Notes: generated from the sequence alone by a model not told the origin. A stretch of 61,395 nt of DNA from an uncultured Bacilli bacterium (GCA_944332525.1 CALVKD010000002.1:1-61395), one strand, 5' to 3'; counted from the stretch's first letter, positions 31,488 through 50,655 are shown. Made by a program: numbers and translations.

Positions 31488-32863
31488 TTACTTAACGTTA
31501 GCGGCTAAAACACTTGCATATTCAAGTAACAGCAAATATTTTTCAGTATTACTCATTATGCCTAGATCAGCAGTTACTTTTTCTATTCCATTGGCAACAG
31601 TATTATTTGAAAATTCAACTCGAGTTTTTAAGAACTCTAATTTTGTTTCAGTAGATAACGTTGTATCATTTACCCAGCCCTCATGTAAACTAATAAATCC
31701 TAAAGCTTTTTTCACATTATTATTTCTAATAATCAACTTACCTGTTCCAAGATTAACTGCACTAGGTTTATCCAATGTAATTTGGATTGCATTATCTTTT
31801 CTTTCATTTTTATTAGTTTCAATTACACTTAAGTAAAATTCGTTATTTTCAATGATTCTATCTCTATCATTTCCCGGCATCATAGTGTTAATTGATTTTG
31901 TAGAATTCATTATTTTATTATTTCTAATTTCATATGAAATATCAGGCGCTGTAGCGGTAATAGCATTGTTATCCTTGATATTATAGAATTGGCAACCATC
32001 AACTACGTAATGTGCTCCACCATTTAATGTTAAAGTACAATTAGCAAAATAAACATTTTTAATAATAACATTATATTCTTCAGTATAGTTTAAATTAATT
32101 CCACCACTTCTATTATCTTTATTATAATAGTTGGAAGCATAATATTTATTTTCAATTGTTATTGTATTTCCAGATTGTTCTATATGATTGCTTGGCACTA
32201 CAAATGAAATGTCTGTAAAAAATTTAGAATTTTCAGAATCACTATCGATAGCGACACTAGTAGAATCACCAACACCTTTAGTTGTAGTTTCAGGTACTAT
32301 ATATGGTCCATTGATCAAATTTAATTTAGTAATATTTTCAAGATATGCTTCATCTTCCAATTCAAACAAATTATTATTTAAATCAAAAGTGTGTTCAGCA
32401 CTAGAAGTCTTAGCTAATGATGACTTTAATGTTACTAGGCTTAATAATGCATAATTGTATACTCCAGTTTGTAATCTTCTATCATCTGGATATACTGCCC
32501 ATAATTCTACGTCACTTGTATAATTAGCTGGGAATTCAATAGTTCCAGAATCTCTGTCTAATAATACAGTAGACACATTCTTTCTATCATAAGCAAACAC
32601 ATATGATTTCGAACTTGTTTTAAAATGATTAGAATTAATACCATTTTCCTCGATTAAAGTTACAAGTTTAGGCAATGTAATATCATCATCTAAAGTATGT
32701 TCAGCTTTTAATAAGATATTATATTGAGTGCATAGTTGTTCGTCTACAGATTTATTTGCCTTCTCTGTGAATGACAAACCGATACTGTGGCTAAAATAGC
32801 TAAAATAGCGATAACCACCAAAAGTTCTACAAGAGTAAAACCTTTTCTTCTGTTAGCTTTCAT
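31488..32863 (-). pseudogene. prepilin-type N-terminal cleavage/methylation domain protein with parallel beta-helix body, interrupted by a 1-nt frameshift
   Basis: An ATG at 32861-32863 (AGGAGG RBS) encodes MKANRRKGFTLVELLVVIAILAILATVS..., a class III signal peptide. This reading frame stops after 39 codons. The 429-aa ORF (31488-32777) continues in the -1 frame with ...SFTEKANKSVDEQL, a typical post-helix pilin sequence. It then carries PbH1-like repeats. Confidence 0.7.
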
Positions 32864-33051: not shown

Positions 33052-33083
33052 ACAAAAAAATCTAGCTTACTTTAAAGCTAGAT
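33052..33083 (-). terminator. intrinsic terminator of the RNase gene
   Basis: A 9-bp stem pairs 33060-33068 with 33075-33083 and embraces the stop codon. A U-run follows on the minus strand (A-run 33053-33060 on the plus strand). Confidence 0.7.
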
Positions 33084-34452
33084 TCTCTCTTTTAACATCG
33101 ACATATGAAGTAGGTGGATATTTTGGATTATACTTATCATGCTTTCCACCACCGGTTTCATTACCGAAGATTTTACCCCAACCATTTTCATAGTTAAGAT
33201 ATTCTTGGAAATCATTATAATGATTATAAGTATAGAATACGTACCTATCTTCAAAATTAGTAATCGGCTGATGGCTTTCCGTGCGACGTGAGAAAACAAT
33301 TCTAGCAGCACCGCGATCAATATAATAACCATTATTATAAATTGAACTAATATGTGAACTTGTTCTCGTTCCAGTTGTACCAATATCGATTTCATAATAA
33401 TATAAATCACCACCGCACCCTTGGATCCGCGGTAATTCTGGTTCATAAGGATACTTATCGGTATCACCAGAGAAAGTAGAAAGGTTTAATCTTAAATATT
33501 CTCCCCATGGTGATGCTTCTGGATCCATTTGTTTACTTTCGACATAGTTAGCTGGAATTTCTCCAAAAGCATAAACATATGCTGCAACATCTTCTAATGT
33601 GATATATGCTCCGTCACGATAAATTTCTTTAACGACTTCACCATAACTATTAACGACATAATAGGTATCTCCGTCTTCTGAGAATAACTCGCTGCTATTT
33701 TTTATTAGCTTTCCACCATCTTGAGGTTGATAACGGCTAATTTCTGGTTCTGGATCAGGAACTGTTATTTCTCCCGACATTAAATAATGTTCGCTTCTGA
33801 GCTTAGCATCATAAGCAGATGTCGCGACATGATAATTTTCGTAAAATTCATCAACATCAATATTGTCGTAAGGATCCGTGTCGGTGATTTCAATAGTTAT
33901 TACATTGCTAATGACATCATCAAGGACTGCATAGATTGATGTCGTTCCAGCTTTAACTGCGGTAATTTTATCACCGCTTATTTCTAATAATCCTTCATAA
34001 TTAGTCTCTTCAATTTTAACTTCTCCAACATAAGTTGAAGGTGTAACTTCATAAGAGGCAAAGACTGATTCACCGAGATTTAAAACGTTCTTTGATAAAG
34101 TTAAAGAAATGCTTTGAATTTCTTGGCTTTCAATAACTGTTAATTTAATTGAATCTTCATGTGATCCTGCTTTAACGCTTATTGTTGTCTCTCCTGGTTT
34201 TAACGCGCGAATTGTTCCCTTTTGATCAATGGTTGCAACCGAAATATCACTTGAATAATATGATAAGGTTAAAGATGAATCATCGCACCGAACAGATAGT
34301 TGATAACTTCCCCCTGCTAACAAGGTTAAATCATCATCGACAATACTTAAAAAAGTATCATGTTGCCCAAAGTTAATTTGGCAAGAGTTTAAGCTTATTA
34401 CTGGTGCTAGTAAAAGCGGAAATAATAGTAAGGTTTTTAAATGTTTTTTCAT
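33067..34452 (-). CDS. secreted lipoprotein: two Big_2 Ig-like domains plus C-terminal barnase-family (microbial N1/T1-type) ribonuclease domain
   Basis: It has a lipobox signal peptide (LLAPVISLNSC) and Big_2 signatures (ATIDQKGTIRALKPGETTISVKAG). The C-terminus aligns with barnase: LEDVAAYVYAFGEIPANYV matches FDGVADYLQTYHKLPDNYI. YYEIDIG carries the equivalent of catalytic Glu, RGAARIVFS is present, and YTYNHYNDF carries the equivalent of catalytic His. Confidence 0.7.
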   Translation of the reverse strand: MKKHLKTLLLFPLLLAPVISLNSCQINFGQHDTFLSIVDDDLTLLAGGSYQLSVRCDDSSLTLSYYSSDISVATIDQKGTIRALKPGETTISVKAGSHEDSIKLTVIESQEIQSISLTLSKNVLNLGESVFASYEVTPSTYVGEVKIEETNYEGLLEISGDKITAVKAGTTSIYAVLDDVISNVITIEITDTDPYDNIDVDEFYENYHVATSAYDAKLRSEHYLMSGEITVPDPEPEISRYQPQDGGKLIKNSSELFSEDGDTYYVVNSYGEVVKEIYRDGAYITLEDVAAYVYAFGEIPANYVESKQMDPEASPWGEYLRLNLSTFSGDTDKYPYEPELPRIQGCGGDLYYYEIDIGTTGTRTSSHISSIYNNGYYIDRGAARIVFSRRTESHQPITNFEDRYVFYTYNHYNDFQEYLNYENGWGKIFGNETGGGKHDKYNPKYPPTSYVDVKRENLALK

Positions 34453-34623
34453 ATAATATCACTTAATGTGAATTATACACGTATATAAGTTATTTGAAAA
34501 CCCTTAAATGATATTTATGCCATTTGTGAATAAATTATTTTTCTATCCTCAGCAAACAATGTATCTCGCAACAAAAATTAATATGATATAATGATAATAA
34601 TAAATTATATGGAGGATTTTGTT

Positions 34624-35181
34624 ATGAGAAAAAGTTTAGGTGCTAAACCTTATTTATTTCCAATGCCAGTTTTAATGATTGCTACTTATAATGAATACGG
34701 TAGCGTCGACTGCATGAATGCTGCTTGGGGAGGCACAGCTGATTATGAAAAAATTGCTATCTGTCTCGATAGCAGTCATAAAACTACGGATAATATCATC
34801 AGAAATAAAGAATTCACAGTTTCTATCGGCGTTAAGGAATATGTAACAGAATGCGATTATTTAGGTATCGTCTCGGGAAAGCAAGTTAAAGACAAATTTG
34901 CTAAATCTGGATTTCATGCCATTGATAGTGAAAAAGTTCACGCTCCGACAATTAAAGAATTACCTTTGACTTTAGAATGCACACTTGACAGAATCACTGA
35001 AGAAGAAGGATTAATGATTGGTAATATCATTAATGTTACGGTTGATGATTCAATTTTAACCGATGGCAAAATCGACATGAAAAAATTTCATGTCATCACC
35101 TTTGATCAAGCAAATAATACTTATATTGAATTAGGTGAAAAAGTAGCCGATGCTTTTAAAATCGGATTGAAACTTAAATAA
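34624..35181 (+). CDS. flavin reductase-like (FMN-binding split-barrel) protein
   Basis: It has the pattern PYLFPMPVLMIATYNEYGSVDCMNAAWGG. I chose the ATG at 34624, which is preceded by GGAGGA. An extended -10 TGATATAAT lies at 34583-34591. Confidence 0.75.
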   Translation: MRKSLGAKPYLFPMPVLMIATYNEYGSVDCMNAAWGGTADYEKIAICLDSSHKTTDNIIRNKEFTVSIGVKEYVTECDYLGIVSGKQVKDKFAKSGFHAIDSEKVHAPTIKELPLTLECTLDRITEEEGLMIGNIINVTVDDSILTDGKIDMKKFHVITFDQANNTYIELGEKVADAFKIGLKLK

Positions 35182-36542
35182 TGCCTATGAACAACATTAG
35201 ATATGATGTCTTTATTTCTTTTAAAAATACCGATAAAGACAATAATCCTACCGAAGATAGCCAAATCGCAGCAATTCTTTATAAAGAATTAGAGCAGCGT
35301 GGCATCAAAGCTTTTTTTAGCAATGTCAGATTATTTCAATTTGGCGAAGCCGCCTATAAAGAGGCCATTGAAAAAGCCCTTGATGATAGCAAGGTTCTCG
35401 TAGCAATTGCAACAAGCGATGATTTTTTAAATAGTAAGTGGGTTAAATATGAACGCGAATCCTTCCATGAAGATATTTTAGCTGGGCGAAAAGAACATGC
35501 TTATATCGTTCCTTATATAAAAAATATCAACGTAAATGCTTTGCCTCGTTCACTAAGAGGCTATGAAACATTTCAAATTAATAATAATGTTGAAGAAGTG
35601 GTGATGTTTATTATCGCTTGCCTCAAAAAAAATAACGAATACAAAGAAAAAAAATTTGAAAAGTCATTAACTACCGGTAAAAATGTCTCGACCTACGACC
35701 CTACTAAAGGCAAAGAGTTGAAACGATTAAAAATTCAAAGTGATAATACCCGTCCGGCCGATATGCTTGCAATCGAATATTGCCTTAAAAATTTACCGCA
35801 CAAAGATAAAATATATATTCTTGATGCAGGATGCGCCTATGGATATGTAACTTCTGATCGATTTTCCAAAATCGAAAATGCCTTTACTTTAGGTGTAGAT
35901 ATTTCAAATAAATGCTTAGAATACGCACGAGAACATAATAATTCCGATAATATAGTTTATGAATATCTTGATTTAGAAAACGAAGATTTTGATGATAATC
36001 TCACTTCCTTAATGGAAAAGTATGGCATTGATAAATTTGATATTATCTTTTCTTCATTGGTTATCCATCACTTAAAAAACCCAAACCGTTTTTTAAGAAA
36101 AATTCGGAAATATCTTTCTAAGGATGGTTTTATTATTTTAAGGGGTTCCGATGACGGATCCATGGTTAGCTGCGGAGATGACGGATTAATTAACAAAATC
36201 ATCGATATGCACGTCAAAACAGATGGTATCTCTGACCGTTTTAACGGAAGAAAACTCTATGGTCAGCTAATTGCCTCGGGATATAAAAATATCAAAATGA
36301 TGTCTTATATTAAGGATACGTCGTCTCTTGATATAGACGAAAAAGAAAATGTGTTTCTTGAAAGATTTGCTTACCGTAAAAATTATCTTCAAAACGCTTT
36401 AGAAAAAGATCCGTATAATATTGAAAAAAAGAACGCTTTAGAAGCTATGGTCTATGCGCTTGATATGCTTGAAAACAAATTTTCTGAAGAATCTTTTTGG
36501 TATAGCGAAATTGATTTTGTCGCTGTAGCTAAAAGAGTTTAA
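35181..36542 (+). CDS. TIR domain fused to class I SAM-dependent methyltransferase
   Basis: Residues about 7-140 form a TIR domain (YDVFISFKNTD...VLVAIATSDDFLNSKWVKYE, putative catalytic E91 at 35451-35453). Residues about 200-340 form the methyltransferase (motif I ILDAGCAYGY, then FDIIFSSLVIHHL, then GFIILRGSDDG). The start overlaps the preceding stop (TAATG). Confidence 0.75.
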   Translation: MPMNNIRYDVFISFKNTDKDNNPTEDSQIAAILYKELEQRGIKAFFSNVRLFQFGEAAYKEAIEKALDDSKVLVAIATSDDFLNSKWVKYERESFHEDILAGRKEHAYIVPYIKNINVNALPRSLRGYETFQINNNVEEVVMFIIACLKKNNEYKEKKFEKSLTTGKNVSTYDPTKGKELKRLKIQSDNTRPADMLAIEYCLKNLPHKDKIYILDAGCAYGYVTSDRFSKIENAFTLGVDISNKCLEYAREHNNSDNIVYEYLDLENEDFDDNLTSLMEKYGIDKFDIIFSSLVIHHLKNPNRFLRKIRKYLSKDGFIILRGSDDGSMVSCGDDGLINKIIDMHVKTDGISDRFNGRKLYGQLIASGYKNIKMMSYIKDTSSLDIDEKENVFLERFAYRKNYLQNALEKDPYNIEKKNALEAMVYALDMLENKFSEESFWYSEIDFVAVAKRV

Positions 36543-36554
36543 AAGAGGTGACAT

Positions 36555-39431
36555 ATGCAGATAGTTATTTTAATTTTAGCAATTTTGATACCGATAATCT
36601 TTATTGTCTTTTTCACGTTTAAAAACACTAAATATAAAACTTATTGCAACAATACATTTTTACTTGTCACATTATTTTTATTATCATTCTTTATTTTCTT
36701 TTTATCAGGCCTAATTAACCATGAAGATATTGGCGATTTAATCTTCTCACCGATTTTTAAAGCGATTAGCATGTTTGCTTTAGGTAACAGTGTTGAGGAT
36801 TTAAATTATACTTTCCAAGGCTATCCATGGATGTACGATACATATAAGGTTTTAATTATTTATATAGATCAATTAATATGTTTGTTATCCGTTTCATTAG
36901 TTATCCTTACTACCTTCATTAAAACCTTACGCGCGAAGATGTTTAACTTTGGAAAAAGCATTAAGTCTCTCCCGTATATCTTTGATTTAAGAAATAAGAA
37001 AAGATGCGTAAAAAACGTCGTTTATACCGATTTACCTTTTGACGATATCGATTATTTTTTAAAGAAGCTTAAGAAAATTGACGGAATGGTTTTAAAGGTT
37101 GTCGTTTTGCTTTCTTCAACGAAAACTGATAGGGCTGAACATTTAACCGATATCTTAAAAATTAACGGCTATGATGTCAGCAATGAATATTTATCGGTAA
37201 CTTCATTAAGAAAAATGATTTTTGCTCCTAACGGCAAGGTTAACGTTTATTCATTATTTTATCGAGATGAAGACAACATTGAATTTGCAAAAATTGCTTT
37301 AAAACTCTGTAATAGCAAAGCGATGAAAAGAAAAATTTCTAAGCAGCTTTTAAATTTTTATGTTAGCTATCAAGATGAATCATATAATAGCAAGCTCGAC
37401 TTTTCTAAAGAAAGCAATGGTTGCATCCAACTCGTCAGCGAATACGATTGGGCTGCGACTAAATTTGTTTTCTATAATCCTTTGACGAGAATTCTTGATT
37501 TAGGAACATTAAAAGAAGATAAATATGCTTTTTTAAAGAAAATAGCTAATCCACCTCAGCTCCATGTTCATTTCTTCGGCTTTGGTAATATTTCTCGTAG
37601 TTTATTAAACAAAATGTTCCCAAATTATCAACTGCCTTATAAAGATAAAAAAGTTATTTATCATATTTTAGATACTGAAGGCAAAAATCTCTGTTCGTCG
37701 TATCTTTCGCAGTTTGATGCTTTCAACAGCTTTTTTAAAAACAAAGAAGAATATCTTGAGCAGAGAAGTTTTGCCGATGCTTTTATTGGATATGATATTG
37801 ATTTAAATAAAGAAGATCAGATTAGAAAATACATCACTGATGTTATTTTGCCGTCATTAAAAGATAACCAGCAGCACATGATAATTATTGCTTTAGGTGC
37901 CTCATTTATCAATCTTACCTTAGCGATGAATGTCCGTCGAATCATCAAAAACTATTCATCAGCATTTAATATTGATTTAAAAGCTAAATCATTTAAGAAA
38001 TCTTTAATTGTTTATCCATATATCAAAGAGAGCAACGCCTTTATGGCAAACCCTCTTTACTATGGCAGCTTTATTAATGAAATAATGTCTAAGCGCGCGA
38101 AGGATACTATTCCTTCAACAAAAGAAATTGTAAACATACTTGCAAAAACTAACAATCATGGTCATGGTGATCACTTATTTGACTATGGAAAAGATTATGA
38201 ATCGTCTCGACTTTATGTTTTTGATGTTCAAGCAGATGATGTTACATTAAAAGAATGCTTTGCCAAGAAAGAAGATTATCATCTTTTTCAAAAGACTTAT
38301 AAAAATCTTAATCCTTTAAATTTCCTTAAGCATTTAAGGCGTGCAACCTATATTTTAGAATCTATTCCTATTGTCGCTTTTGGACGCGGGGGATATCTTC
38401 GCGATGAGCTCTCGGATCATATCCGCGATTTAGCAGCTATGGAAAACTTCTCTTATATGCCAAAAAGCGATATTCAAAAAATTAAAGAAAGCTACGAGAA
38501 AAAGCATATTAAAATATCCGACTACCAAATCGCCCTTCAGCTTTGGAATAATTCATTAAACCATTATTTGCAAATGACTAATATCGGCTCAATCTTATCA
38601 TTACCTTATAAACTCGGATTATTCGGCTATAAGTTTAAGATGAGCGAAAATTTAAAAGAAAAGGATAACTTGTCCTTGCATAATCAAGAAGTTATAGAAT
38701 CAATCAATTATTCTTTACGTCAGCCATTTAATATTAACAAAGACACTGAAAGCAAAGATCTTCAATTATCCTTGACAAAAAAAGATTTGAAACCTATCTT
38801 TTCAGAAAAATTTCTATCGACTTATCAAGGCGAAACAATTACTTATAATTTATTAAGAAGTCATTTTCTAAAGGTTTATAAAAGTGAATATCTCACTTTT
38901 AAAAAGAATATTGACAAATTTAAAGAAAACAATCAAGGCGATATCTCATTATTTACCGATTTGTACGCCTTGACATATGACTTAAACAGAATTATTAATC
39001 CATATGCTTTAATTATCCGTAACATTGAACATAATCGTTGGTATGTATTAAATGCCGAAGCAGGAATCGTTCCTTTAACGAAAGAAGAAATTGTATCCGG
39101 AATGAAAAAAAGTCCAGACGGCCTACGCCATCGCTGCATGACCAGTAATGAAGGACTCAATGAATTAGCCAAACTAACCATTCGCTTCAAACTTAGCGAA
39201 AAGGAAACCGATCAAAACAAAGGTAAGGTTGATGAATTAATAAAATTTGCATCTTTAGAAGAATTATTACATCATATTGAAACTTCGCCTAGCAATGTAT
39301 TAAAGGATATCTATAAACTCGTCTATTATAATGATATCTCATCATTGACTTCATTAAATGAAAAATTAAGTGTCGGAAACAATCAAAAAGTTATTTATTA
39401 TTTCAAAAATAAAGGTGGAATCAAACTATGA
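36555..39431 (+). CDS. 958-aa membrane protein of unknown function (4 N-terminal TM helices, Rossmann-like cytoplasmic region, C-terminal EHxRW motif)
   Basis: It has an AGAGGTG RBS. The TM helices lie in residues 1-130. A glycine loop VHFFGFGNISRS lies at about 37573-37600. The C-terminal motif NIEHNRWYV...LRHRCMTSNEGLNEL lies at about 39021-39140. I could not assign a confident family. Confidence 0.7.
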   Translation: MQIVILILAILIPIIFIVFFTFKNTKYKTYCNNTFLLVTLFLLSFFIFFLSGLINHEDIGDLIFSPIFKAISMFALGNSVEDLNYTFQGYPWMYDTYKVLIIYIDQLICLLSVSLVILTTFIKTLRAKMFNFGKSIKSLPYIFDLRNKKRCVKNVVYTDLPFDDIDYFLKKLKKIDGMVLKVVVLLSSTKTDRAEHLTDILKINGYDVSNEYLSVTSLRKMIFAPNGKVNVYSLFYRDEDNIEFAKIALKLCNSKAMKRKISKQLLNFYVSYQDESYNSKLDFSKESNGCIQLVSEYDWAATKFVFYNPLTRILDLGTLKEDKYAFLKKIANPPQLHVHFFGFGNISRSLLNKMFPNYQLPYKDKKVIYHILDTEGKNLCSSYLSQFDAFNSFFKNKEEYLEQRSFADAFIGYDIDLNKEDQIRKYITDVILPSLKDNQQHMIIIALGASFINLTLAMNVRRIIKNYSSAFNIDLKAKSFKKSLIVYPYIKESNAFMANPLYYGSFINEIMSKRAKDTIPSTKEIVNILAKTNNHGHGDHLFDYGKDYESSRLYVFDVQADDVTLKECFAKKEDYHLFQKTYKNLNPLNFLKHLRRATYILESIPIVAFGRGGYLRDELSDHIRDLAAMENFSYMPKSDIQKIKESYEKKHIKISDYQIALQLWNNSLNHYLQMTNIGSILSLPYKLGLFGYKFKMSENLKEKDNLSLHNQEVIESINYSLRQPFNINKDTESKDLQLSLTKKDLKPIFSEKFLSTYQGETITYNLLRSHFLKVYKSEYLTFKKNIDKFKENNQGDISLFTDLYALTYDLNRIINPYALIIRNIEHNRWYVLNAEAGIVPLTKEEIVSGMKKSPDGLRHRCMTSNEGLNELAKLTIRFKLSEKETDQNKGKVDELIKFASLEELLHHIETSPSNVLKDIYKLVYYNDISSLTSLNEKLSVGNNQKVIYYFKNKGGIKL

Positions 39432-40327
39432 TTTGTCAGAGAGAAATTCTTTTTGCTCAAGAAGTTCTAAGAAGAATTGCGCAGCAAAAATTTAATATCT
39501 GCTTCATTGGAGAAACTGAGACAAACAAAGAATTATTTAAATATTTTTTATCCGCGAACCTCTGTCTTTTTCACGATGAAAAAGTATATTTTAATGGTAA
39601 AATGTATAAAGAAATAGTTGCTAAGTTAGAAAAGATTTCGACGCTTATTTTATTAAAATATCAAGAGATATCTTCATTAAATGAACTTCCTCAAGGAACT
39701 TATATTTTTTCAGGAGGTGAACATATCTTAGAAAATGAATATAGGTTTGTTATTTATGATACAAGCAACTTAAATCGTTATTTTTTAAAAGATTATGACG
39801 CTTTAATCCGATTAGATGACAGCATTCATGAAATAGTTAAAACAGTCTTAGATAGTAAAAGCAAAGATATTAAAGACTTACAAATTTTGTTACCAACAAA
39901 TCATAATTTAACAAACGATTATTCTTTCCATTATATTTTTTCCGATGTTCTTTATCTCTATGTAGAAAAGTATCTAAAAGCTACCTATCAAAAAAGTGAA
40001 TTTTCGCAGATGCTACAAAAGATTCTATCCTTATGCGGCGAAGAATTATATCTTTATATTTTTAATAATTATCTTAACGAATCGCCATTTGCTTTTTTAA
40101 GCGATATTGAACATCAAAGATGGATGATTAGAACGCTTCTTTATGATGCAGATGATATCTATGAAAGAAAAAGGCACCTATTTGTATCTTTCAAAGATTT
40201 ATATTTATCATTAACTAAGATTTCTAAAGAAACCATTGATTATTATCAAGATGATATCTTAATTTATGATTTTCTTGATGTAGTCGCCGCGGGAATTGTA
40301 TCTTTAAAAAATGATAACCTCATTTAA
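39428..40327 (+). CDS. 299-aa protein of unknown function sharing the EHxRW...RH motif with the upstream gene
   Basis: It overlaps the upstream gene (ATGA) and has an AAGGTGGA RBS. The motif DIEHQRWMIRT...KRHLFVSFKDL lies at about 40103-40200. Confidence 0.65.
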   Translation: MICQREILFAQEVLRRIAQQKFNICFIGETETNKELFKYFLSANLCLFHDEKVYFNGKMYKEIVAKLEKISTLILLKYQEISSLNELPQGTYIFSGGEHILENEYRFVIYDTSNLNRYFLKDYDALIRLDDSIHEIVKTVLDSKSKDIKDLQILLPTNHNLTNDYSFHYIFSDVLYLYVEKYLKATYQKSEFSQMLQKILSLCGEELYLYIFNNYLNESPFAFLSDIEHQRWMIRTLLYDADDIYERKRHLFVSFKDLYLSLTKISKETIDYYQDDILIYDFLDVVAAGIVSLKNDNLI

Positions 40328-40386
40328 AGATTATTTTCTTGATTTTTTCTCTTCGCGGTTAATAATATTTTTACGAGGCATATACT

Positions 40387-41730
40387 ATGAAATTTATCAA
40401 AGAAAAAGAAATGTTAACATCAGAAGAATTATCTTCTTTACATGAAAAATACGTGAAGAATAACGAGCAAACCATTCTTCGTCACGCATTAAGCAAAAAT
40501 AAAATATCCGATATTTGCTTTGTTAATGAAAGCGAAAAAAATAATGATTTTAAGTTTTCTTTGGAAGTTAAAACTTTGCCGATTTGCAATCAGAAGCAAT
40601 CCGGCCGCTGCTGGATTTTTGCTGGTTGCAATCTCTTTAGAGAAATTATCGCTAAAAAACTTAATCTCGATAATTTTGAACTTTCTCAAAACTATGTCGC
40701 TTTCTATGATAAACTTGAAAAAGCAAATTACGCTTTATCATCAATTATGGAATTGTTAGATAAAGAACATGATGATCGTATTCTCTCACACTTATTGATT
40801 AATGCTGTCGGTGACGGAGGACAATTTGATATGTTTGTTAATCTCATTAACAAATATGGTCTCTGCCCAAAGAAAGCCATGGAAGAAACCTTCCAGTCAT
40901 CAGCGACAAGAGAATCTGATTTATTAATTAATGCTACCATTAGAAATTTTGCTTTCCAAGCCCAAAAACTTTTTAAAGATAAAAAATACGAGGAAATTCA
41001 ACACTTAAAGAATCAAACGATTGAAAAGATTTACAATTTCCTTTCTTCGTGCTTTGGCTTAGTCCCTGAAAAATTCGATTTTGAATATGTCGATAAAGAT
41101 GGACAATATCATCTTGAAAGAGATTTAACACCAAAATCTTTTGTCGCAAAATATCTCGGCGATGAAGTTAATAACTATCAATCGATTACTAATTCACCAA
41201 CTAACGATAAACCTTATTATCTCGCTTATACTATCGATTATTTAGGTAATGTCGTTGAAGGCAAAAAGGTTACTCATCTCAACTTACCGATGGAGAGAAT
41301 TGAAGAATTAATTATTAACCAGTTAAAAGACGGCCAAATCGTCTGGTTTGGCAGCGATGTTTCGTATTACGGAGATAGAGATTCCGGAAAATGGGATGAT
41401 AATGCCTATGATTACCTTTCAGCCTTTAACATGGATTTAAAGTTTGATAAAGGCGGTATGCTTGATTATTATCAATCGGCGATGAACCATGCTATGTGCA
41501 TCACTGGAGTAAACTTAGTTGACGGCAAGCCAACTAAATGGAAAATTGAAAACTCTTGGGGTGATCAACGTGGAGAAAAGGGTTTCTTTATTATGAGCGA
41601 AGATTTCTTTAAAACCTTCGTTTATCAAGCAGTTGTGAATAAAAAATACCTTAACGAAGAAGAAAATAAAGCCTTAGAAAAAGAATTAAAAGTCTTCCCA
41701 ATTTATGATCCAATGGGAACTTTAGCTTAA
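40387..41730 (+). CDS. pepC: aminopeptidase C (bleomycin hydrolase, peptidase C1B)
   Basis: This 447-aa protein has the active-site Cys motif QKQSGRCWIFAGCN and the catalytic His region NHAMCITGV, followed by KIENSWG. Confidence 0.9.
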   Translation: MKFIKEKEMLTSEELSSLHEKYVKNNEQTILRHALSKNKISDICFVNESEKNNDFKFSLEVKTLPICNQKQSGRCWIFAGCNLFREIIAKKLNLDNFELSQNYVAFYDKLEKANYALSSIMELLDKEHDDRILSHLLINAVGDGGQFDMFVNLINKYGLCPKKAMEETFQSSATRESDLLINATIRNFAFQAQKLFKDKKYEEIQHLKNQTIEKIYNFLSSCFGLVPEKFDFEYVDKDGQYHLERDLTPKSFVAKYLGDEVNNYQSITNSPTNDKPYYLAYTIDYLGNVVEGKKVTHLNLPMERIEELIINQLKDGQIVWFGSDVSYYGDRDSGKWDDNAYDYLSAFNMDLKFDKGGMLDYYQSAMNHAMCITGVNLVDGKPTKWKIENSWGDQRGEKGFFIMSEDFFKTFVYQAVVNKKYLNEEENKALEKELKVFPIYDPMGTLA

Positions 41731-41732
41731 TG

Positions 41733-41770
41733 AAAAAAGCTAAGCATATATAGTGCTTAGTTCTTTTTTA
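41733..41770. terminator. bidirectional terminator between pepC and the flavodoxin gene
   Basis: A stem pairs GCTAAGCA (41739-41746) with TGCTTAGT (41754-41761). It is flanked by an A-run and a T-run. Confidence 0.6.
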
Positions 41771-42856: not shown

Positions 42857-45800
42857 TTAATTTTGCTCACTCCAAGTGATATTGTTATCTCCGCGAAGAT
42901 TAAGATACATTAAGTTAGCATTATCGCGATCTTTATCAGTAAGAACTGTTAGGACAATAACGTTTTCACCTTCTTTGAGTTCAACGCAACCAAGATTAAT
43001 TTCAACAAATGTATTCCAGTGGCTGTTGTTCAAAGGTGAAGCCGGTCTCATCGCCGATGATACCATATCAACGCCATTAACATTGATGCTCATGCCGCTA
43101 GTGATTAATCTTCTTTGATCGCGGTAGTTGAATGAAAAAAGTAAATTGACAGTTCCTGCCTTTTCAGCATTAACGCGGAAAGTAATTGTCGCACCTTTAT
43201 TTTGATCAACATTTCCTAATGCACCAGATTGTTCAGTTGACGAGAAATTCTTTGCTCCATTAGTAAGCTCAGCATCGACAGCATTGAAGATATGATCATG
43301 TCCAATGGTATCTTCACCGCATTTGTCTAGGCAGCTAGTCGCTTGACAATCTGGGTCAAGACATTTTCCGCAGACGCTGCACTTATGAGTGCAACCTTCG
43401 TTATTTGTTAATTCTTCATCAGTTTTGAGAGTGATGTAATCAATATTTGTCGCATTATTTGTAGCAGTTAAGACAATTGTATTTTCGCCAGCTTTTAAAT
43501 TAATGCAGCCAATTAAAGTTTCTGAGAAATAGTGCCAAGTATCAACATTAGAAATCGGCATATCAACTCTCGCTGGAGAAGTAACGCTTTCTCCATTAAC
43601 TGTGATTTGGAAAAGATCAGTGAATAATGGTTTTTGATCGCGTTTCATTGAAACAGCTGCTGCAAGAGTTGCAACTTGATCAGCTGATGAATCGACTTTA
43701 AAGGTTAAAGTTGCTCCAGCATTTCCGTTAACATCTTGAGCGAAGTTATCGCGAATGGACGGCATTTTACTATTTCCTGCACCAAATTCTGCGCTTTCAG
43801 CTTCATAACGGTAGTTATATGCTTTATTATCTCCGCATTTAACTTCACATTCAGAATAATCGTAGTCATCATCAAGGCAGCCGCCGCAGATTGGGCACTT
43901 GCTTTCACAAGTATGTTCGGGATAATCTGAAGTGATTTCACCATCAGTAACTAATTTGATGTAATCCATATTTACGCCAATTGAGCCATCATTGCTAATT
44001 ACTTCTAGAGTAATAGTATTTGCTCCAGGCGCTAAGGTGATATTGCCGATAGTGATTTCGGTAAAGCCATACCAGAGATCATATTGATAGATGGAAGCTT
44101 TATTAACAGCAGTTGTTGTTACTTCTTGATCATTGACTGTTATTTTGAATAAATCACTAATCTTGTATTCTTTTATTCTTTGTCCGACTGAAAGGATTAA
44201 TGTTGCTTTAGCGGTATTTTTACTGTTAACATTGAAGCTTATTTTTGCTCCCATGTTTTCGCTGATAGATCCAACATAACCAAGAGTATTATTAGGGGAA
44301 AGAGCTTTTACTCCGTCAATTAATGTTGCATCTTCAGCTTCAAAGCGATAAGTATTCTTTGGTTTTTCACTGATAGTAATTGAAACTTCATCAGTAAATT
44401 CACCATATTTTACAGTAATAACATTATTTTCTAAGGTTAATGCACCTGTTGGTTCATAAGTATAATCGGTAATTTCTTTTCTAGAACCATCTGAGTAGAC
44501 TGCTTCGACTTTCATACCAGTTGCATCGAATTCTTCACCGACAAAATAGCTAGTTTTTGATGGTTGGCTGACAACTTCAATTCCGCTTAAGACAGCATCT
44601 TCGAAGACATCATCTGATAATTCAGCTGGGCTAGTAACTGCGATATAGTCGAAATTGACTAAATCGGCATTAGAGGAAGTTTTAACGGTAAATGTAAGGG
44701 TATTTAAACCTTTGACCAAATCAACGCAACCGAGATTGACTTCGCGAGAAGTAAACCAATCGTTACCATCAGCTCTAATTGTTGGTGAGTTAGGGTCAGA
44801 AGCTTTAATGCGTGATTCTCTATCAAGAACTTCACCATTGAGTTCAACATCAAAAGCATTCATGAAGCGTTTTTCATCAGGTCTAGAGGTAACTGCCGCG
44901 GCTAAATTTGCTCTAACATTATCTTTAGAATAAATGTTGAAAGTTAATTTTGCGCCGAGGTTTTCAGAAAGGTTACCAACTAATACATATTTATCTGTAC
45001 CTTCGTAAACCGATGATTGTTCACCTGTACTTGGCATACCTTTTGTACCACCAGATAAAGTGCTCTTCTCTGCTTGGAAAACAAATTTTTCGCCTGCAAC
45101 TTGACATTTTTCTTCATGTCCAGGATTTGTGCATTCTAAGTCCATGCACCTACCGCAGACTGGACAAATTTCATCGCATTCGATGATAGGTGCAACATAT
45201 TCTAAATCAGTATCGGTTAAAAGTTTAATCTTATCGAGATTGTAACCTGAAGTATTTCCAGTTCCTTGTTGAATTAAGGAAATAGTATTTCCACCTTCAA
45301 CGAGATTAATACAACCTAAGTTAACATCGCTAAAGGTTGTCCACGTTTCACCATCTAAACCATTAGATTTGACTACTGCTTGTGAAGTAAAGGCTGACCC
45401 GTTAACAGAGACATAGACGTTATTTGTATAAATTGTCTCGACAACACGCTTATTAATTCTTACAACAAGCGATGCTGTAGTGTCAGCAGCTGATTTAATT
45501 GTAAATGTTACACCTCCACCAAGATTGTTATTTAATTCACCGATATAAGTGATTCCATTAGTCGTATAAATTTGAGGTCTTTCTTTTCCTGTGACGATTA
45601 ATCCGTCTTCAGCTTCAAATTCATGAGAAGTTAAGCCTTCACCGCATTTAACGCTGCAAGCTTCATCGTCGCATTCAAGATCGAGGCATCCTCCGCAAAT
45701 CGGACACTTTTCGGTGCAAACATGTTTTTCTTCTTCACTTGATCCAGAGCTATCTGAAGTAGTTGGATTGCTTCCAGATGAGGATTGAGAAGAACTGCTC

Positions 45801-48800
45801 GATGATGCTAGAGGTAAAGTTAGAGATAAGACAACAATTGCTACTACGCCAAGGCCTAATAATGAGAACAATAAAATCTTCTTTTTCTTATTATTGCCAT
45901 CATTATCTGGTGGAGTTGTTCCGCCATTTGATCCACCATCGTCACTGGTGACTGTTTTTGATTTACCATCAGTAAATACCTTTTCTGAAATCTTTTTGGA
46001 ATTTAAGATAAATGAAGCAATAGCCATCAATAAGCATAAGGTTAATAAAGTGATTGATACACCTTCACCAACATTTAAAGCAACCTGCCACCAGACAGCA
46101 ACTTTTTGAATGCTAGTATCTTGAGTGACGCCATTCATACAATTGGAATTAAGTTGAGCATAGAGAAGGCGGTGGCATGCCTCTCTTAAAGCTAACATAA
46201 CCGTCGGATTATCTTCATATTCTTTCAAATATGATTCATTTCCTCCACCATCCATCCATAAGTCGTTTCCAGCTAACAAGCCTTCAGCTTTAGCATTTGG
46301 ATTAGTCATATGGTGAACAGAATCAGTTGTACCGGTGCAAGAGTCGGTTTCAACAATTCCATTAAATCCCCATTCATCTCTTAAAACAGATGTTAATAAT
46401 CCGTGATGAGCGCCAGCCCAAATGGTACCAATACGGTTAAATGATGACATTAAGCCGTTCATCTTACCTTCAGTAACAGCCATTTCGAATGGTTTTAAAT
46501 AAATTTCTCTAATCGATTGTTCGTTAGCAAATGTCGCAACACCATAACGATTAGTTTCTTGGTCATTTAAAGCAAAGTGTTTTGTGAAAACAATAACTCC
46601 TTTACTCTGTAATCCTTTAATTTCGCTAGCTAATAATTTTCCCGATAAGAATCCATCTTCCGAGAAATATTCCCAGTTACGTCCTCCATAAGGTGAACGA
46701 TGGATACATCCGCCTGGACCGTAAATACCAGTATATCTAGCATGGAGAATTTCGTGAGAGAAAGCTTCTCCGACTTCTTCAAGCAATGGGGCGTTGAATG
46801 TCGCAGCCATTAAAGTCTCACTTGGGAAAGACATTTGAGTCTTTAAGGTTGGGTTATTTTCTTTTAATCCTGCCGGGCCATCTTTACATTCTGCACCAGG
46901 TGCGCTGACTGAAGAAGCGCCAGCGATATGGTGAAGACCATAGGACATTAAATATTCTTGTTCGCCTTTGCTCATTTGATTGAGTAGGTCATCCCATAAT
47001 TCGTCATCATAATCTTTATCTTTGAGCATGATGAGTTTAAGTTCACCGATAGAAGAAGTAACAGTATCATAGATAGGCATTTCATCTTCTGGATTAGCAA
47101 TAACTTCGTCACCATATTGCATATCGTGAACCATAATATCATTGACGCAGTCAAGAACAACAGGTTCAGGGAATGTATCGTTCCAGTTATTACGGCTTAA
47201 ATAAGTGATGCTTTGATCATCTTTCGTGCCTTCATAAAGATTTAAATCAGTATCGTTGAATTGATTAGAAACTTCTTTATTAGTATAAGGAGATGTTTTA
47301 TAGGTAGTAAAATCATCTTTATCCACTGTAACTTTATAAGTTGCTCCATCTACATATGAACCAACGATATCATCTTTCAAAGAGTCATCTTTTTCGACAA
47401 TAATATTATTGATTGCTTCATGAGCATCACTAGCCATCGTGAGATAATAGTCACCTTTTTCTAAAATGTAACTACCTTCACCATAAGCGTCATATGTTTT
47501 AAATTCATATGGATCAACTTCGACAGTAACTGTCGCACTTTCACCTTTTTCTAATTTTTCACTCTTAGCAAAACCGACGAGTTCAACCGAAGCTTTTTCA
47601 ATATTATGCTCCTTGTCATATTCAGTATATGGTTTTTGTAAATATACCTGCATGACATCTTTACCGGCATAATCACCGACGTTAGTTGTGGTGAAAGATA
47701 ACTGATAATTACCATTAGGAAGTTCAGTCATCTTATAGTCGCTGCGTTCAAATTCAGCATAAGATAAACCATATCCAAAAGGATAGCTAACTTCATTTTC
47801 ATAATCCCAAGTTGCACCAGTTGTGGCACCTTTGCTTCCGGAAGCTTGTCCCTGATTTAAAATAGTATCTTCATAGCGAGTTTCATAATAGCGATACCCA
47901 ACGTAGATACCCTCTTGATAAGTAACATATTTAATATTGTAACTAGCGTATGTTTCTTTACCTTGGTTATCAAGATCAGGTAATTCAGAGGAATATTCAT
48001 TCCAGGTGAAATCACCAAAATTCTGTTGAGAAGGTATTGAATCATTATCGTAAACAAAAGTATCAGATAAGTGTCCTGAAACAACATAATCGCCGCGTCC
48101 AGATAAAACAGCCGCGATTTGCTTATATGACATTGTTCCGCCTAAACCGACATAAACAATTCCGTCAACATTGAGTTTTGAAAGATTTTTAAATTGTAAA
48201 GCATTAGCCGAATTGATTAATACAACGACTTTTTTTACTTTACCTTCATCTCTTAATTTAATTAAATTTGTAAGAACATCAATTTCATCATTAGTTAAAT
48301 CTAGATAATTCTTTTCATCTGCGAAGTCATCTTTGTCAGATGGAGTGATGTCATAATGTTCACCAGCGACACGAGAAATAATCATGACCGCGGCATCATT
48401 ATAATTTGAGATAGTTTTATCAACTGTGCTAGAAACCTCAGAATATGGGGCTTCATTAACCGCTTGACGGTTAGTTCTCTTATAAGTTTGAGCGAGCGAT
48501 GAATATTGGAAAAATAAATCCATATTTAAGCGAAGATTATATTCGCTAAAGGCAGTGTTCATTGTTCCATCTGGTGTTACGCTCATCGATCCTGAACCAT
48601 CACCTAAAAAGACATAATTGGCTGATGAAATACCAAATAGAGAGACCCCTGCATTTTCTTTTAATGGCAAGGCATCATTGTTTTGGAGCACGACGCTTCC
48701 TTCAACAGCAGCTTGTAAAGCTTTCTCTTTTGAATTTGCACGCATGGCCTCATCATCATAGGACCCATTTTTCATAAAATCAGATTTAAAGTATTCTGAA

Positions 48801-48985
48801 TCTGTTTCTGAGCCACTTGTATCTGTTTGAACATATGGATTAGTATGAAACATACCATTAATTGCTGCTTCATACTTGTTTGCAAGAGGATTACCAACAA
48901 CGAAAATAGTTGTTAAAATTCCAAAAAAGACGCTTGCGAGAACCCAAGACGATCTAGTAAACAATGGTTTCAACTTTTTATTCAT
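42857..48985 (-). CDS. 2042-aa membrane-anchored glycoside hydrolase family 3 enzyme (domain-permuted) with C-terminal array of CBM6/35-like modules, one Ig-like domain and Cys-rich linkers
   Basis: GH3 C-domain motifs come first (VLQNNDALPL, YPFGYGLSY). An Fn3-like region follows (VMQVYLQKP). The GH3 barrel comes after that (KHFALNDQETNR, SFNRIG, GIVETDS). There is an N-terminal signal anchor and two further TM helices (DNA about 45795-46075). Five repeats of the type FEAEDxxL...NxDYIxL are present. It has a GGAGGTG RBS. Confidence 0.85.
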   Translation of the reverse strand: MNKKLKPLFTRSSWVLASVFFGILTTIFVVGNPLANKYEAAINGMFHTNPYVQTDTSGSETDSEYFKSDFMKNGSYDDEAMRANSKEKALQAAVEGSVVLQNNDALPLKENAGVSLFGISSANYVFLGDGSGSMSVTPDGTMNTAFSEYNLRLNMDLFFQYSSLAQTYKRTNRQAVNEAPYSEVSSTVDKTISNYNDAAVMIISRVAGEHYDITPSDKDDFADEKNYLDLTNDEIDVLTNLIKLRDEGKVKKVVVLINSANALQFKNLSKLNVDGIVYVGLGGTMSYKQIAAVLSGRGDYVVSGHLSDTFVYDNDSIPSQQNFGDFTWNEYSSELPDLDNQGKETYASYNIKYVTYQEGIYVGYRYYETRYEDTILNQGQASGSKGATTGATWDYENEVSYPFGYGLSYAEFERSDYKMTELPNGNYQLSFTTTNVGDYAGKDVMQVYLQKPYTEYDKEHNIEKASVELVGFAKSEKLEKGESATVTVEVDPYEFKTYDAYGEGSYILEKGDYYLTMASDAHEAINNIIVEKDDSLKDDIVGSYVDGATYKVTVDKDDFTTYKTSPYTNKEVSNQFNDTDLNLYEGTKDDQSITYLSRNNWNDTFPEPVVLDCVNDIMVHDMQYGDEVIANPEDEMPIYDTVTSSIGELKLIMLKDKDYDDELWDDLLNQMSKGEQEYLMSYGLHHIAGASSVSAPGAECKDGPAGLKENNPTLKTQMSFPSETLMAATFNAPLLEEVGEAFSHEILHARYTGIYGPGGCIHRSPYGGRNWEYFSEDGFLSGKLLASEIKGLQSKGVIVFTKHFALNDQETNRYGVATFANEQSIREIYLKPFEMAVTEGKMNGLMSSFNRIGTIWAGAHHGLLTSVLRDEWGFNGIVETDSCTGTTDSVHHMTNPNAKAEGLLAGNDLWMDGGGNESYLKEYEDNPTVMLALREACHRLLYAQLNSNCMNGVTQDTSIQKVAVWWQVALNVGEGVSITLLTLCLLMAIASFILNSKKISEKVFTDGKSKTVTSDDGGSNGGTTPPDNDGNNKKKKILLFSLLGLGVVAIVVLSLTLPLASSSSSSQSSSGSNPTTSDSSGSSEEEKHVCTEKCPICGGCLDLECDDEACSVKCGEGLTSHEFEAEDGLIVTGKERPQIYTTNGITYIGELNNNLGGGVTFTIKSAADTTASLVVRINKRVVETIYTNNVYVSVNGSAFTSQAVVKSNGLDGETWTTFSDVNLGCINLVEGGNTISLIQQGTGNTSGYNLDKIKLLTDTDLEYVAPIIECDEICPVCGRCMDLECTNPGHEEKCQVAGEKFVFQAEKSTLSGGTKGMPSTGEQSSVYEGTDKYVLVGNLSENLGAKLTFNIYSKDNVRANLAAAVTSRPDEKRFMNAFDVELNGEVLDRESRIKASDPNSPTIRADGNDWFTSREVNLGCVDLVKGLNTLTFTVKTSSNADLVNFDYIAVTSPAELSDDVFEDAVLSGIEVVSQPSKTSYFVGEEFDATGMKVEAVYSDGSRKEITDYTYEPTGALTLENNVITVKYGEFTDEVSITISEKPKNTYRFEAEDATLIDGVKALSPNNTLGYVGSISENMGAKISFNVNSKNTAKATLILSVGQRIKEYKISDLFKITVNDQEVTTTAVNKASIYQYDLWYGFTEITIGNITLAPGANTITLEVISNDGSIGVNMDYIKLVTDGEITSDYPEHTCESKCPICGGCLDDDYDYSECEVKCGDNKAYNYRYEAESAEFGAGNSKMPSIRDNFAQDVNGNAGATLTFKVDSSADQVATLAAAVSMKRDQKPLFTDLFQITVNGESVTSPARVDMPISNVDTWHYFSETLIGCINLKAGENTIVLTATNNATNIDYITLKTDEELTNNEGCTHKCSVCGKCLDPDCQATSCLDKCGEDTIGHDHIFNAVDAELTNGAKNFSSTEQSGALGNVDQNKGATITFRVNAEKAGTVNLLFSFNYRDQRRLITSGMSINVNGVDMVSSAMRPASPLNNSHWNTFVEINLGCVELKEGENVIVLTVLTDKDRDNANLMYLNLRGDNNITWSEQN
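43319..45718 (-). repeat. four copies of a 25-residue Cys-rich module inside the GH3 gene, each preceding a CBM-like repeat
   Basis: The modules lie at 45644-45718 (CTEKCPICGGCLDLECDDEACSVKC), 45104-45178 (CDEICPVCGRCMDLECTNPGHEEKC), 43835-43909 (CESKCPICGGCLDDDYDYSECEVKC) and 43319-43393 (CTHKCSVCGKCLDPDCQATSCLDKC). Each is exactly 75 nt from the first Cys to the last. Confidence 0.9.
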
Positions 48986-50654: not shown

Positions 50655-50655
50655 A

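Follow-up and report, generated by a model that had tools for sequence, protein, structure and literature searches.

A candidate TIR signalling module pairing a TIR-methyltransferase fusion with a membrane protein that carries a putative RyR-like domain

The window analyzed here is a 61,395-nucleotide (nt) stretch of DNA from an uncultured Bacilli bacterium (GCA_944332525.1, CALVKD010000002.1:1-61395; G+C content 31.7%). Positions 34624-40327 contain four plus-strand genes, and an original prediction made from the sequence had singled them out as a possible undescribed TIR-based defence or signalling system. The genes were found at the coordinates it gave, and the observation as a whole was confirmed. 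Three of them encode a TIR domain fused to an S-adenosylmethionine (SAM)-dependent methyltransferase (MTase), a 958-amino acid (aa) membrane protein and a 299-aa soluble protein. The TIR-MTase gene lies directly beside a gene of the same membrane-protein family in three lineages, and the membrane protein ends in a domain that resembles the RyR repeat, suggesting tentatively that the products form a Thoeris-like signalling module. The accompanying interpretation survived in part: the fusion, the unmodelled partners, the preservation of the trio in a second lineage and the RyR likeness were borne out, but membership of the flavin reductase, a strict three-gene unit and a defence-island setting were not.

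The locus and the TIR-methyltransferase fusion protein

The four genes are:

34624-35181, plus strand: flavin-reductase-like gene, 185 aa (PF01613, E 2.4e-12)
35181-36542, plus strand: TIR-MTase fusion gene, 453 aa (Pfam TIR and methyltransferase models)
36555-39431, plus strand: membrane protein gene, 958 aa (hydropathy, AlphaFold2 (AF2) secondary structure and family profile)
39428-40327, plus strand: small soluble partner gene, 299 aa (orthologue, natural fusion and motif)

The predicted junctions between them were all found. The flavin-reductase-like stop codon overlaps the TIR-MTase start (TAATG, 35179-35183), a 12-nt spacer (AAGAGGTGACAT) containing AGAGGTG precedes the membrane-protein start at 36555, and the start of the 299-aa gene overlaps the stop of the 958-aa gene (ATGA, 39428-39431).

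Both domains of the 453-aa protein, proposed to join a TIR domain to a class I SAM MTase, score above their Pfam thresholds. TIR_2 (PF13676) matches residues 10-132 with 38.1 bits against a cut-off of 28, and TIR (PF01582) scores 30.4 bits against 21.3. Five class I methyltransferase models (Methyltransf_31, 12, 11, 23 and 25) exceed threshold over residues 203-371, with Methyltransf_31 (PF13847) at 58.7 bits against a cut-off of 27. The protein is laid out as a TIR domain (residues 8-150), a low-confidence linker (residues 154-171) and a small-molecule-type SAM MTase with a C-terminal lid (residues 175-453). Distant matches to BioC, UbiG and CmoB-type enzymes were the only ones obtained from NCBIfam, and a sequence search of the PDB returned small-molecule MTases together with the TIR domains of RUN1, AbTir and IL1RAPL2. 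Two motifs bear on activity:

35451-35453, plus strand: codon for E91, the putative catalytic TIR glutamate, in the motif W87-V-K-Y-E91-R (invariant in the alignment)
35823-35843, plus strand: MTase motif I, the SAM-binding glycine loop DAGCAYG, residues 215-221 (alignment)

Conservation was assessed in an alignment of 16 TIR-MTase sequences with 54-80% identity. E91 had been pointed out as the TIR glutamate, and W87, Y90, E91 and R92 are all invariant, as are D215, G217, C218, A219, Y220 and G221 of the methyltransferase motif LDxGCAYG. The glutamate four residues after the tryptophan is also kept in context L018 (below), where the TIR-MTase has only 34% identity to that of the window. Because the TIR motif and SAM motif I are invariant, both halves of the protein look catalytically competent at the level of the alignment.

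The AF2 model of the fusion, built from 16 homologues, is fairly confident (pLDDT 79.7). Its best Foldseek match is 3mgg (E 2.8e-15, TM-score 0.74 normalized to the target); others include JHAMT, TmtA/GtmA, a phosphoethanolamine MTase (PfPMT) and the sugar O-MTases RebM and AtmM. As modelled, the MTase fold is nearest to small-molecule O-, N- and S-methyltransferases, including the two sugar enzymes.

Clustered at 90% identity, the TIR-MTase family accounts for at least 373 clusters among 5.8 billion. The 120 matches listed are full-length homologues of the same architecture, 53-97% identical to the window protein. No relatives were found in IMG/VR viral contigs. PADLOC models recognized the TIR part only (residues 5-101), with PDC-S66 at E 5.6e-8, SAVED-TIR at 0.01 and PycTIR at 0.013.

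The membrane protein, its RyR-like domain and the small partner

Neither the 958-aa nor the 299-aa protein is matched by any Pfam, NCBIfam or PADLOC model, as had been anticipated, and PDB sequence searches gave nothing useful, whether the profile represented the 958-aa family or its C-terminal domain only. Close relatives of the 958-aa protein are rare: five clusters among 5.8 billion, and two species, both uncultured Bacilli, among 185,579 GTDB representatives. A profile search of 1.84 billion representative proteins recovered a wider family of 170 clusters at E ≤ 0.001, mostly of 650-1000 aa. The 958-aa protein belongs to this unnamed family, whose members have transmembrane (TM) helices at the N terminus, a pair of Rossmann-like domains and an EHxRW domain at the C terminus. 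Residues F304, G342, Q359, G610, Y634, E825, H826, R828, W829 and D927 are near-invariant in 53 diverse members.

In the window protein, the TM helices occupy residues 1-134 and the Rossmann-like domains approximately residues 150-275 and 333-492, followed by a helical middle region and the C-terminal RyR-like domain. Three of the four N-terminal TM helices originally proposed are clear hydrophobic segments, but the fourth is only amphipathic. The HFFGFG core of the proposed Rossmann-like glycine loop is invariant in the close family (H339, F340, F341, G342, F343, G344 and I346), with G342 near-invariant in the broad family, and the low-confidence AF2 model places a strand (335-341) and a helix (348-354) around it. 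The features of the two partner proteins to which we refer below are:

37569-37604, plus strand: glycine-rich loop HFFGFGNISRSL, residues 339-350 of the 958-aa protein, which opens the second Rossmann-like domain (alignment and model)
38997-39194, plus strand: RyR-repeat-like core, residues 815-880 of the 958-aa protein, with EHNRW (H826, W829), G837, K852, H859, C861 and L868 (hhalign)
40109-40123, plus strand: EHQRW motif, residues 228-232 of the 299-aa protein (E228, H229, Q230, R231 and W232 invariant in the 299/318-aa family)

The C-terminal domain of the family follows the pattern EHxRW...K...H-x-C-x-T-T-x-x-G-L, and its resemblance to the RyR repeat, noted originally by eye, was upheld moderately well in profile tests. 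Of 22 C-terminal segments, four matched Pfam RyR (PF02026), the best with E 0.005, over profile positions 20-72 of 91, and no other family was matched by more than a single segment. Together with a match in relative P0184 (below), these scored 14.2-16.5 bits (E 0.005-0.05). For comparison by hhalign, RyR alignments were assembled from the cADPR sponge RyR Tad of Pectobacterium phage CB1 (gp68; cADPR, cyclic ADP-ribose), PDB entries containing RyR repeats and another eight RyR-domain proteins of phages, and the family domain was aligned with them. Three comparisons gave probabilities of 72%, 34% and 48% (E 3.4e-5, 4.4e-4 and 1.8e-4, respectively), each in the identical register over 43-46 columns. 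The score of 26.1 is about 8 standard deviations above column-shuffled RyR controls (mean 9.6, standard deviation 2.1, maximum 15.9 in 150 shuffles), and a reversed alignment scored 9.8. In the reverse direction, a small hidden Markov model of the RyR core scored the family at 1-7 bits, above decoys but weakly. The RyR repeat is a four-helix fold; the AF2 model is helical over the domain, at a pLDDT of 30-50.

In the shared register, H826, W829, G837, K852, H859, C861 and L868 pair with RyR Tad H129, W132, G140, K147, H154, C156 and L163. The H-to-G (+11) and K-to-H (+7) spacings are the same, and four ligand-contact residues of RyR Tad, within HxxW and K-x6-H, are matched. Phage RyR-domain proteins use these HxxW and K...H residues for their ligands (PMC13232231; 10.64898/2026.06.04.730250). 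Mutations at H129/W132 and K147/H154 of RyR Tad weaken binding of 3'cADPR about 100-fold (10.64898/2026.06.04.730250), and H75, W78 and H100 of RyDEP contact the ligand, H75 being catalytic (PMC13232231). Overall, we consider true homology of the EHxRW domain with the RyR repeat reasonably likely. According to two 2026 preprints, phage RyR-domain proteins bind with nanomolar affinity, or cleave, the TIR-made isomers 2'cADPR, 3'cADPR and cADPR (PMC13232231; 10.64898/2026.06.04.730250). The idea that the membrane protein could sense a nucleotide thereby gains a concrete basis.

RyDEP and RyR Tad raise a different possibility: that the RyR-like proteins of the window limit a signal, degrading or sequestering the TIR product as self-protection or as an off-switch. 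Catalytic H75 of RyDEP aligns with the near-invariant H826 (PMC13232231), the downstream D927 is also near-invariant, and no output domain is obvious in the soluble 299-aa protein, all of which would suit such a role. A sponge or glycosidase would nevertheless hardly need a protein as elaborate as the 958-aa chain, with its TM helices and two Rossmann-like domains, and a counterpart of the catalytic RyDEP D117 could not be aligned. Moreover, most TIR-MTase genes have no RyR-like neighbour, and therefore self-protection is evidently not required. We regard signal limitation as quite improbable.

The membrane and Rossmann-like parts of the 958-aa protein gave fainter leads. The best Foldseek match of its low-confidence model is the RCK gating ring of DMI1 (7vm8; E 6.9e-4, TM-score 0.16-0.25), a weak match, and the Slo1 gating ring and NeuC are among the other weak ones. 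A relative, P0184, matches TrkA_N (E 8e-4, 20.2 bits against a threshold of 23.8) and RyR (E 0.053), both below threshold and in the expected order; the window protein itself has no Pfam ion-channel or TrkA_N match. Between hydrophobic segments 2 and 3 the close family conserves F-(A/T)-L-(G/S)-N (36735-36800, residues 61-82), a sequence that loosely resembles the GN-containing filter of CASTOR/POLLUX/DMI1 channels. The 'FALGN' sequence was considered as a pore or selectivity motif and set aside, as it is not conserved in the L018 protein. Translated searches (tblastn) with the 958-aa protein against phages and with P0184 against plasmids gave no match.

The 299-aa protein carries a C-terminal domain of the form EHQRW...KRHLFVSFKDL. 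Word-indexed searches with this protein found near-identical relatives only, but a 318-aa gene that follows a 923-aa homologue of the membrane protein encodes its orthologue (34% identity, E 2e-43). The two window proteins are only weakly similar by BLASTP (E 0.039), with residues 166-234 of the 299-aa protein aligning up to the EHxRW region. The 299-aa N terminus (residues 21-51, FNICFIGETETN) aligns with the second Rossmann β1-loop-αA of the family (E 0.002, at low probability), and the Rossmann-loop and EHxRW matches occur in colinear order with the 958-aa family. A natural fusion also exists: P0130 (1407 aa) consists of a 958-type protein followed by a 299-like C-terminal module, in which the 299-family profile matches residues 1139-1396 through its positions 19-286 (E 4.4e-9 against 154 sequences; BLASTP E 3e-6). 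Two EHxRW motifs are present in this chain, at approximately residues 970 and 1344. The shared EHxRW motif, the observation that first linked the two proteins, is therefore not a product of chance even though their pairwise similarity is weak: it is near-invariant in the 53 members, recurs in the 1407-aa fusion and is accompanied by the colinear Rossmann-loop match. These alignments make it probable that the cytoplasmic module of the membrane protein has a reduced paralogue in the 299-aa protein, one with a degenerate Rossmann β1-loop, and because the two are naturally fused in P0130 they probably act together in a complex.

Gene linkage across genomes and genomic surroundings

The neighbourhoods of TIR-MTase genes were sampled in 12 distinct genomic contexts. 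In three of them, representing three lineages, the gene stands beside a member of the membrane-protein family with tight translational coupling. The window and L011 form the first lineage. In the second (L001, L009, L010 and L012) the trio is kept, with 3-nt and overlapping junctions; the TIR-MTase, membrane protein and small partner are 80%, 50% and 34% identical to those of the window, and the flanks differ, with purA, purB, hpf and ApbE upstream and AAA_14 or AraC downstream. In the third (L018), 3 nt separate the start of a TIR-MTase gene, whose product is 34% identical to that of the window, from the preceding stop codon of a gene for a 670-aa protein. The latter is a full-length member of a distant, approximately 700-aa branch of the membrane family (broad-family profile E 2.7e-63; C-terminal-domain profile E 1e-18). 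There the gene order is reversed and no 299-type gene is present. The conserved core consists of two genes, those for the TIR-MTase and the membrane protein, with the 299-aa gene found in only two of the three partnered lineages.

The expectation that the trio would co-localize elsewhere was thus met in a second lineage with different flanks, but the TIR-MTase is solo in the remaining nine contexts. Its neighbours there are housekeeping genes, among them lspA-rluD, pcp, aromatic amino-acid, ruvX-like, mini-RNase III, ABC transporter and P-type ATPase genes, and no EHxRW protein was found within the flanks of these nine contexts. The TIR-MTase can evidently work without an adjacent partner. Conversely, relatives of the 958-aa protein with 30% identity (L002, L003 and L028) lie in another operon that has no TIR gene. 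In these contigs (L002:1-11111, L003:1-11090, L028:495-9532) the relative ends a co-directional operon that encodes a weakly DO-GTPase2-like protein (~700 aa), a domainless protein of ~880 aa, a protein of ~1000 aa that contains Flg_new repeats and a transglutaminase-like protein of 336 aa, and which may be a second, unrelated system using the same membrane/RyR-like module. In L002 the gene for the 336-aa protein precedes that for the 1036-aa relative; it was considered as a counterpart of the 299-aa gene and rejected, its product being weakly transglutaminase-like instead.

The link between the TIR-MTase and the membrane protein is clearly facultative, and the arrangement could be read as no wiring at all. 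The TIR-MTase would then be autonomous, for example an NAD+-consuming enzyme in which SAM or a phage factor is sensed by the MTase-like domain, or an enzyme of small-molecule biosynthesis, and the 958-aa and 299-aa proteins would form an unrelated membrane complex. The absence of a partner from nine of the 12 contexts and the company of entirely different genes kept by the 958-aa homologues in L002, L003 and L028 are consistent with this explanation. So is L029, a relative with shared synteny elements in which ABC transporter genes come right after the TIR-MTase and in whose light the 958/299 pair behaves as an insertable cassette. The adjacency is nevertheless seen again between very distant branches of the two families, where the gene order is reversed and 3 nt separate the genes. 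The TIR-MTase and membrane-protein genes are separated by 12 nt in the window and 3 nt in L001, and the 299-type gene overlaps the upstream stop codon. A TIR product and a RyR-type ligand domain are, in addition, a mechanistically matched pair (PMC13232231). Since both families are rare, the coupling is tight and distant branches are adjacent in two independent instances, it is very unlikely that the two families came together by chance. Taken together, we consider a functional link between the TIR-MTase and the membrane protein likely, and a complete lack of wiring distinctly unlikely.

Two sequence elements around the core bear on the predicted transcript:

34584-34592, plus strand: extended -10 element TGATATAAT, a putative promoter 32 nt upstream of the ATG at 34624 (sequence reading)
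41738-41762, plus strand: first downstream terminator-like hairpin, after pepC (40387-41730)

The extended -10 element is present as predicted, but its coordinates lie one base to the right of those first given. A GGAGG ribosome-binding site at 34610-34614 serves the ATG at 34624. The gene pepC encodes aminopeptidase C (PF03051, E 8.7e-150). A search of the plus strand from 34600 to 41738 found no terminator-like site, and because no such hairpin precedes 41738 the predicted transcript may extend from the flavin reductase through pepC. The flavin-reductase-like gene is probably co-transcribed with the TIR-MTase. Neither it nor pepC was retained as a system member: both are absent beside the trio in L001, L009 and L010, and the flavin reductase, which had been counted with the operon, is not conserved upstream there. 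A flavin-reductase gene does occur two genes away and on the opposite strand in a solo context with a 64%-identical TIR-MTase (L029:3218-3868), which may reflect residual synteny or a loose redox link. Genes for cation P-type ATPases lie directly beside solo TIR-MTase genes in two unrelated contexts (L006:8471-10987; L015:4683-7424, minus strand); this could be coincidence or hint at a connection with ion homeostasis.

No defence-island setting was recognizable around the locus, and no defence genes were found within ~12 kb on either side, where PADLOC returned only generic P-loop matches to a neighbouring ABC ATPase. The flanks encode a ZIP transporter, ABC transporters, a member of the exo/endonuclease-phosphatase family, an acetyltransferase-like protein, a Big_2/ribonuclease-like lipoprotein, pepC, a flavodoxin, a 2042-aa glycoside hydrolase and an Agr-type two-component pair. 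Across the sampled contexts, a small sample, the neighbours are likewise transporters, a peptidase, a flavodoxin and purine and aromatic amino-acid genes, with no islands.

Such surroundings raise the question of whether the same wiring serves ordinary physiology rather than antiviral defence, with an NAD-derived messenger through which, for example, redox, NAD or SAM status would govern ion flux or the state of the membrane. Housekeeping or transporter flanks occur in every context, and the TIR-MTase is unusually conserved for a defence gene (53-68% identity in matches listed, among them Bacilli and Clostridia metagenome-assembled genomes). The families were absent from mobile elements in our searches (the TIR-MTase from viral contigs in IMG/VR, the 958-aa protein from phages and P0184 from plasmids), a flavin reductase is coupled in the window and nearby in L029, and P-type cation ATPases stand beside the solo copies in L006 and L015. 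The patchy spread of both families, with at least 373 TIR-MTase clusters at 90% among 5.8 billion and the 958-aa protein in two GTDB species, looks accessory rather than core, however, and the partners evolve much faster than the TIR-MTase (50% and 34% versus 80% identity), as is usual for defence effectors. To our knowledge, all characterized prokaryotic TIR enzymes work in conflict systems (see also Yirmiya et al. 2025, 10.64898/2025.12.03.692087). We judge a purely physiological role unlikely.

Several neighbouring genes were recorded in passing. The 2042-aa protein (42857-48985, minus strand) has an N-terminal signal or TM segment, a glycoside-hydrolase-like region and about five Cys-rich repeats (e.g., C-x-x-K-C-P-I-C-G-G-C-L-D-x-x-C...C-G), each followed by a carbohydrate-binding-like module; these are unusual linkers. 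Beyond this giant gene lies the Agr-type pair (49320-51366, minus strand), a GHKL kinase (HATPase_c_5) and a LytTR regulator. On the other side, 31488-32777 (minus strand) encodes a 429-aa protein with no Pfam match and an N/T-rich, β-helix-like composition, and 33067-34452 (minus strand) encodes a 461-aa lipoprotein with Big_2 and a weak barnase-type ribonuclease C-terminal region (PF00545, E 8.6e-4), which may be a secreted nuclease or toxin.

Proposed mechanism and comparison with known TIR systems

The preferred reading is a Thoeris-like TIR signalling module in which a RyR-like receptor is carried by the membrane protein, and we assign it a probability of roughly 45%. The TIR domain, with E91 as the catalytic residue, would convert NAD+ to a small molecule derived from ADP-ribose (ADPR). 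The fused MTase could methylate this product, for example at a ribose hydroxyl in the manner of sugar O-MTases, or could regulate or sense for the TIR domain. The RyR-like C-terminal domain of the 958-aa protein would read the product, with H826, W829, K852 and H859 as candidate ligand residues. Binding would alter the membrane assembly of TM helices and two RCK/TrkA-N-like Rossmann domains, leading to ion flux or loss of membrane integrity. The 299-aa protein is probably an accessory or regulatory subunit that associates with the membrane protein, or may act as a buffer. The domains, their conservation, the repeated adjacency and the natural fusion are observed directly, whereas we infer the chemistry, ligand, output and biological role; the most likely role is phage defence of the abortive-infection type or another stress response.

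Several results speak against a Thoeris-like module of this kind. In addition to the solo TIR-MTase genes, the TIR-free operons of membrane-protein relatives and the lack of defence genes nearby, PADLOC models of ThsB and ThsA matched none of the four proteins. The AF2 model of the 958-aa protein is poor (pLDDT 49.6, from six homologues only). For the receptor domain, Pfam RyR does not match the window proteins, every matching relative falls below the PF02026 gathering score of 27.4 bits, and the hhalign probability reaches no more than 34-72% depending on the alignment. H859 is replaced by N or S in three close relatives, and the counterpart of RyR Tad K170/D171 (RyDEP D117) could not be placed in the alignment.

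A bolder version of the same proposal is that the TIR enzyme and the RyR-bearing membrane protein are an ancient ligand-receptor pair, in which a new, possibly methylated, ADP-ribose-derived messenger gates an RCK-like channel. This pair would be a prokaryotic counterpart, possibly a forerunner, of animal cADPR-RyR signalling and the source from which phage RyDEP and RyR Tad were drawn; we think it doubtful that all of this holds. The 2026 preprints asked whether domains of the RyR type might naturally serve as receptors for TIR-made signals, and a native receptor would be expected to sit, as the RyR-like domain does here, on a host membrane protein encoded beside a TIR enzyme. If the module is as proposed, TIR signalling would gain a new class of effector and possibly a methylated ADP-ribose-type messenger. 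The locus also provides a first functional lead for the ~170 clusters of TM, Rossmann and EHxRW proteins, among which P0130 is a potentially useful single-chain construct for structural work.

Among described systems, Thoeris (types I-XI, with a ThsB TIR generator and a ligand-gated effector) is the nearest, since it also couples a glutamate-bearing TIR domain to an effector comparable to our candidate nucleotide-binding TM protein; several Thoeris effectors are, like the 958-aa protein, membrane proteins. Prokaryotic TIR enzymes turn NAD+ into ADPR, cADPR isomers, His-ADPR or N7-cADPR, which activate adjacent Thoeris effectors, and type X combines a TIR protein with an ion channel, according to the systematic survey by Yirmiya et al. 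(10.64898/2025.12.03.692087). The window differs in that the TIR domain is fused to a SAM MTase, most TIR-MTase genes are solo and no defence island surrounds the locus. The candidate sensor is also RyR-like, whereas Thoeris sensors and effectors include SLOG, Macro, caspase-like, DUF2270, DUF6650 and SLATT types. The partner set had been judged not to be of the Thoeris ThsA type, in agreement with the absence of any PADLOC Ths model match. The survey describes 29 putative types, its pipeline having discarded standalone TIRs, and the terms RyR, PF02026, TrkA and methyltransferase do not appear in those portions of its text and supplements that could be searched (10.64898/2025.12.03.692087). 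Our literature search found no paper mentioning a TIR-methyltransferase fusion and no description of a host RyR-domain partner of a TIR protein. With no description of a combined TIR-MTase and RyR-like module found, this is probably an undescribed TIR signalling module. PDC-S66 (a candidate single-gene model), SAVED-TIR and PycTIR share TIR similarity with the fusion but lack an MTase domain and the 958/299 partners.

RyDEP (mycobacteriophage DyoEdafos gp78), RyR Tad (CB1 gp68) and PF02026 share with the window domain HxxW, the glycine at H+11 and K-x6-H-x-C...L. The phage proteins are small, soluble and viral, whereas the window domain is host-encoded and forms part of the 958-aa membrane protein and of its Rossmann-like 299-aa partner; it falls below the Pfam threshold, has a loop eight residues longer and has no identifiable equivalent of the K170/D171 (D117) position. 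The role that we propose for it is signal reception, that of RyDEP and RyR Tad being signal destruction. RCK/TrkA-N-gated channels (MthK, CASTOR/POLLUX/DMI1 and BK/Slo1) resemble the 958-aa protein in placing N-terminal TM helices before two Rossmann-like domains. They differ in lacking its C-terminal RyR-like domain; for the 958-aa protein no pore or selectivity-filter signature was demonstrated, and its model is too poor to claim the fold.

Finally, the pairing of a TIR-type enzyme with a RyR-repeat-type domain on a membrane protein has a parallel in animal cADPR-ryanodine receptor signalling (a SARM1 or CD38 product, RyR and Repeat12), in which both folds are implicated (PMC13232231; 10.64898/2025.12.03.692087). 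That cADPR binds the animal R12 domain directly is itself unproven. The animal receptor shares only the ~45-residue repeat core with the 958-aa protein, the membrane and Rossmann parts being unrelated. If the RyR-like domain is a native receptor, bacterial TIR signalling would be linked with the animal cADPR/ryanodine-receptor question, and the locus would make it possible to study in a simple bacterial setting whether RyR repeats respond directly to molecules like cADPR.

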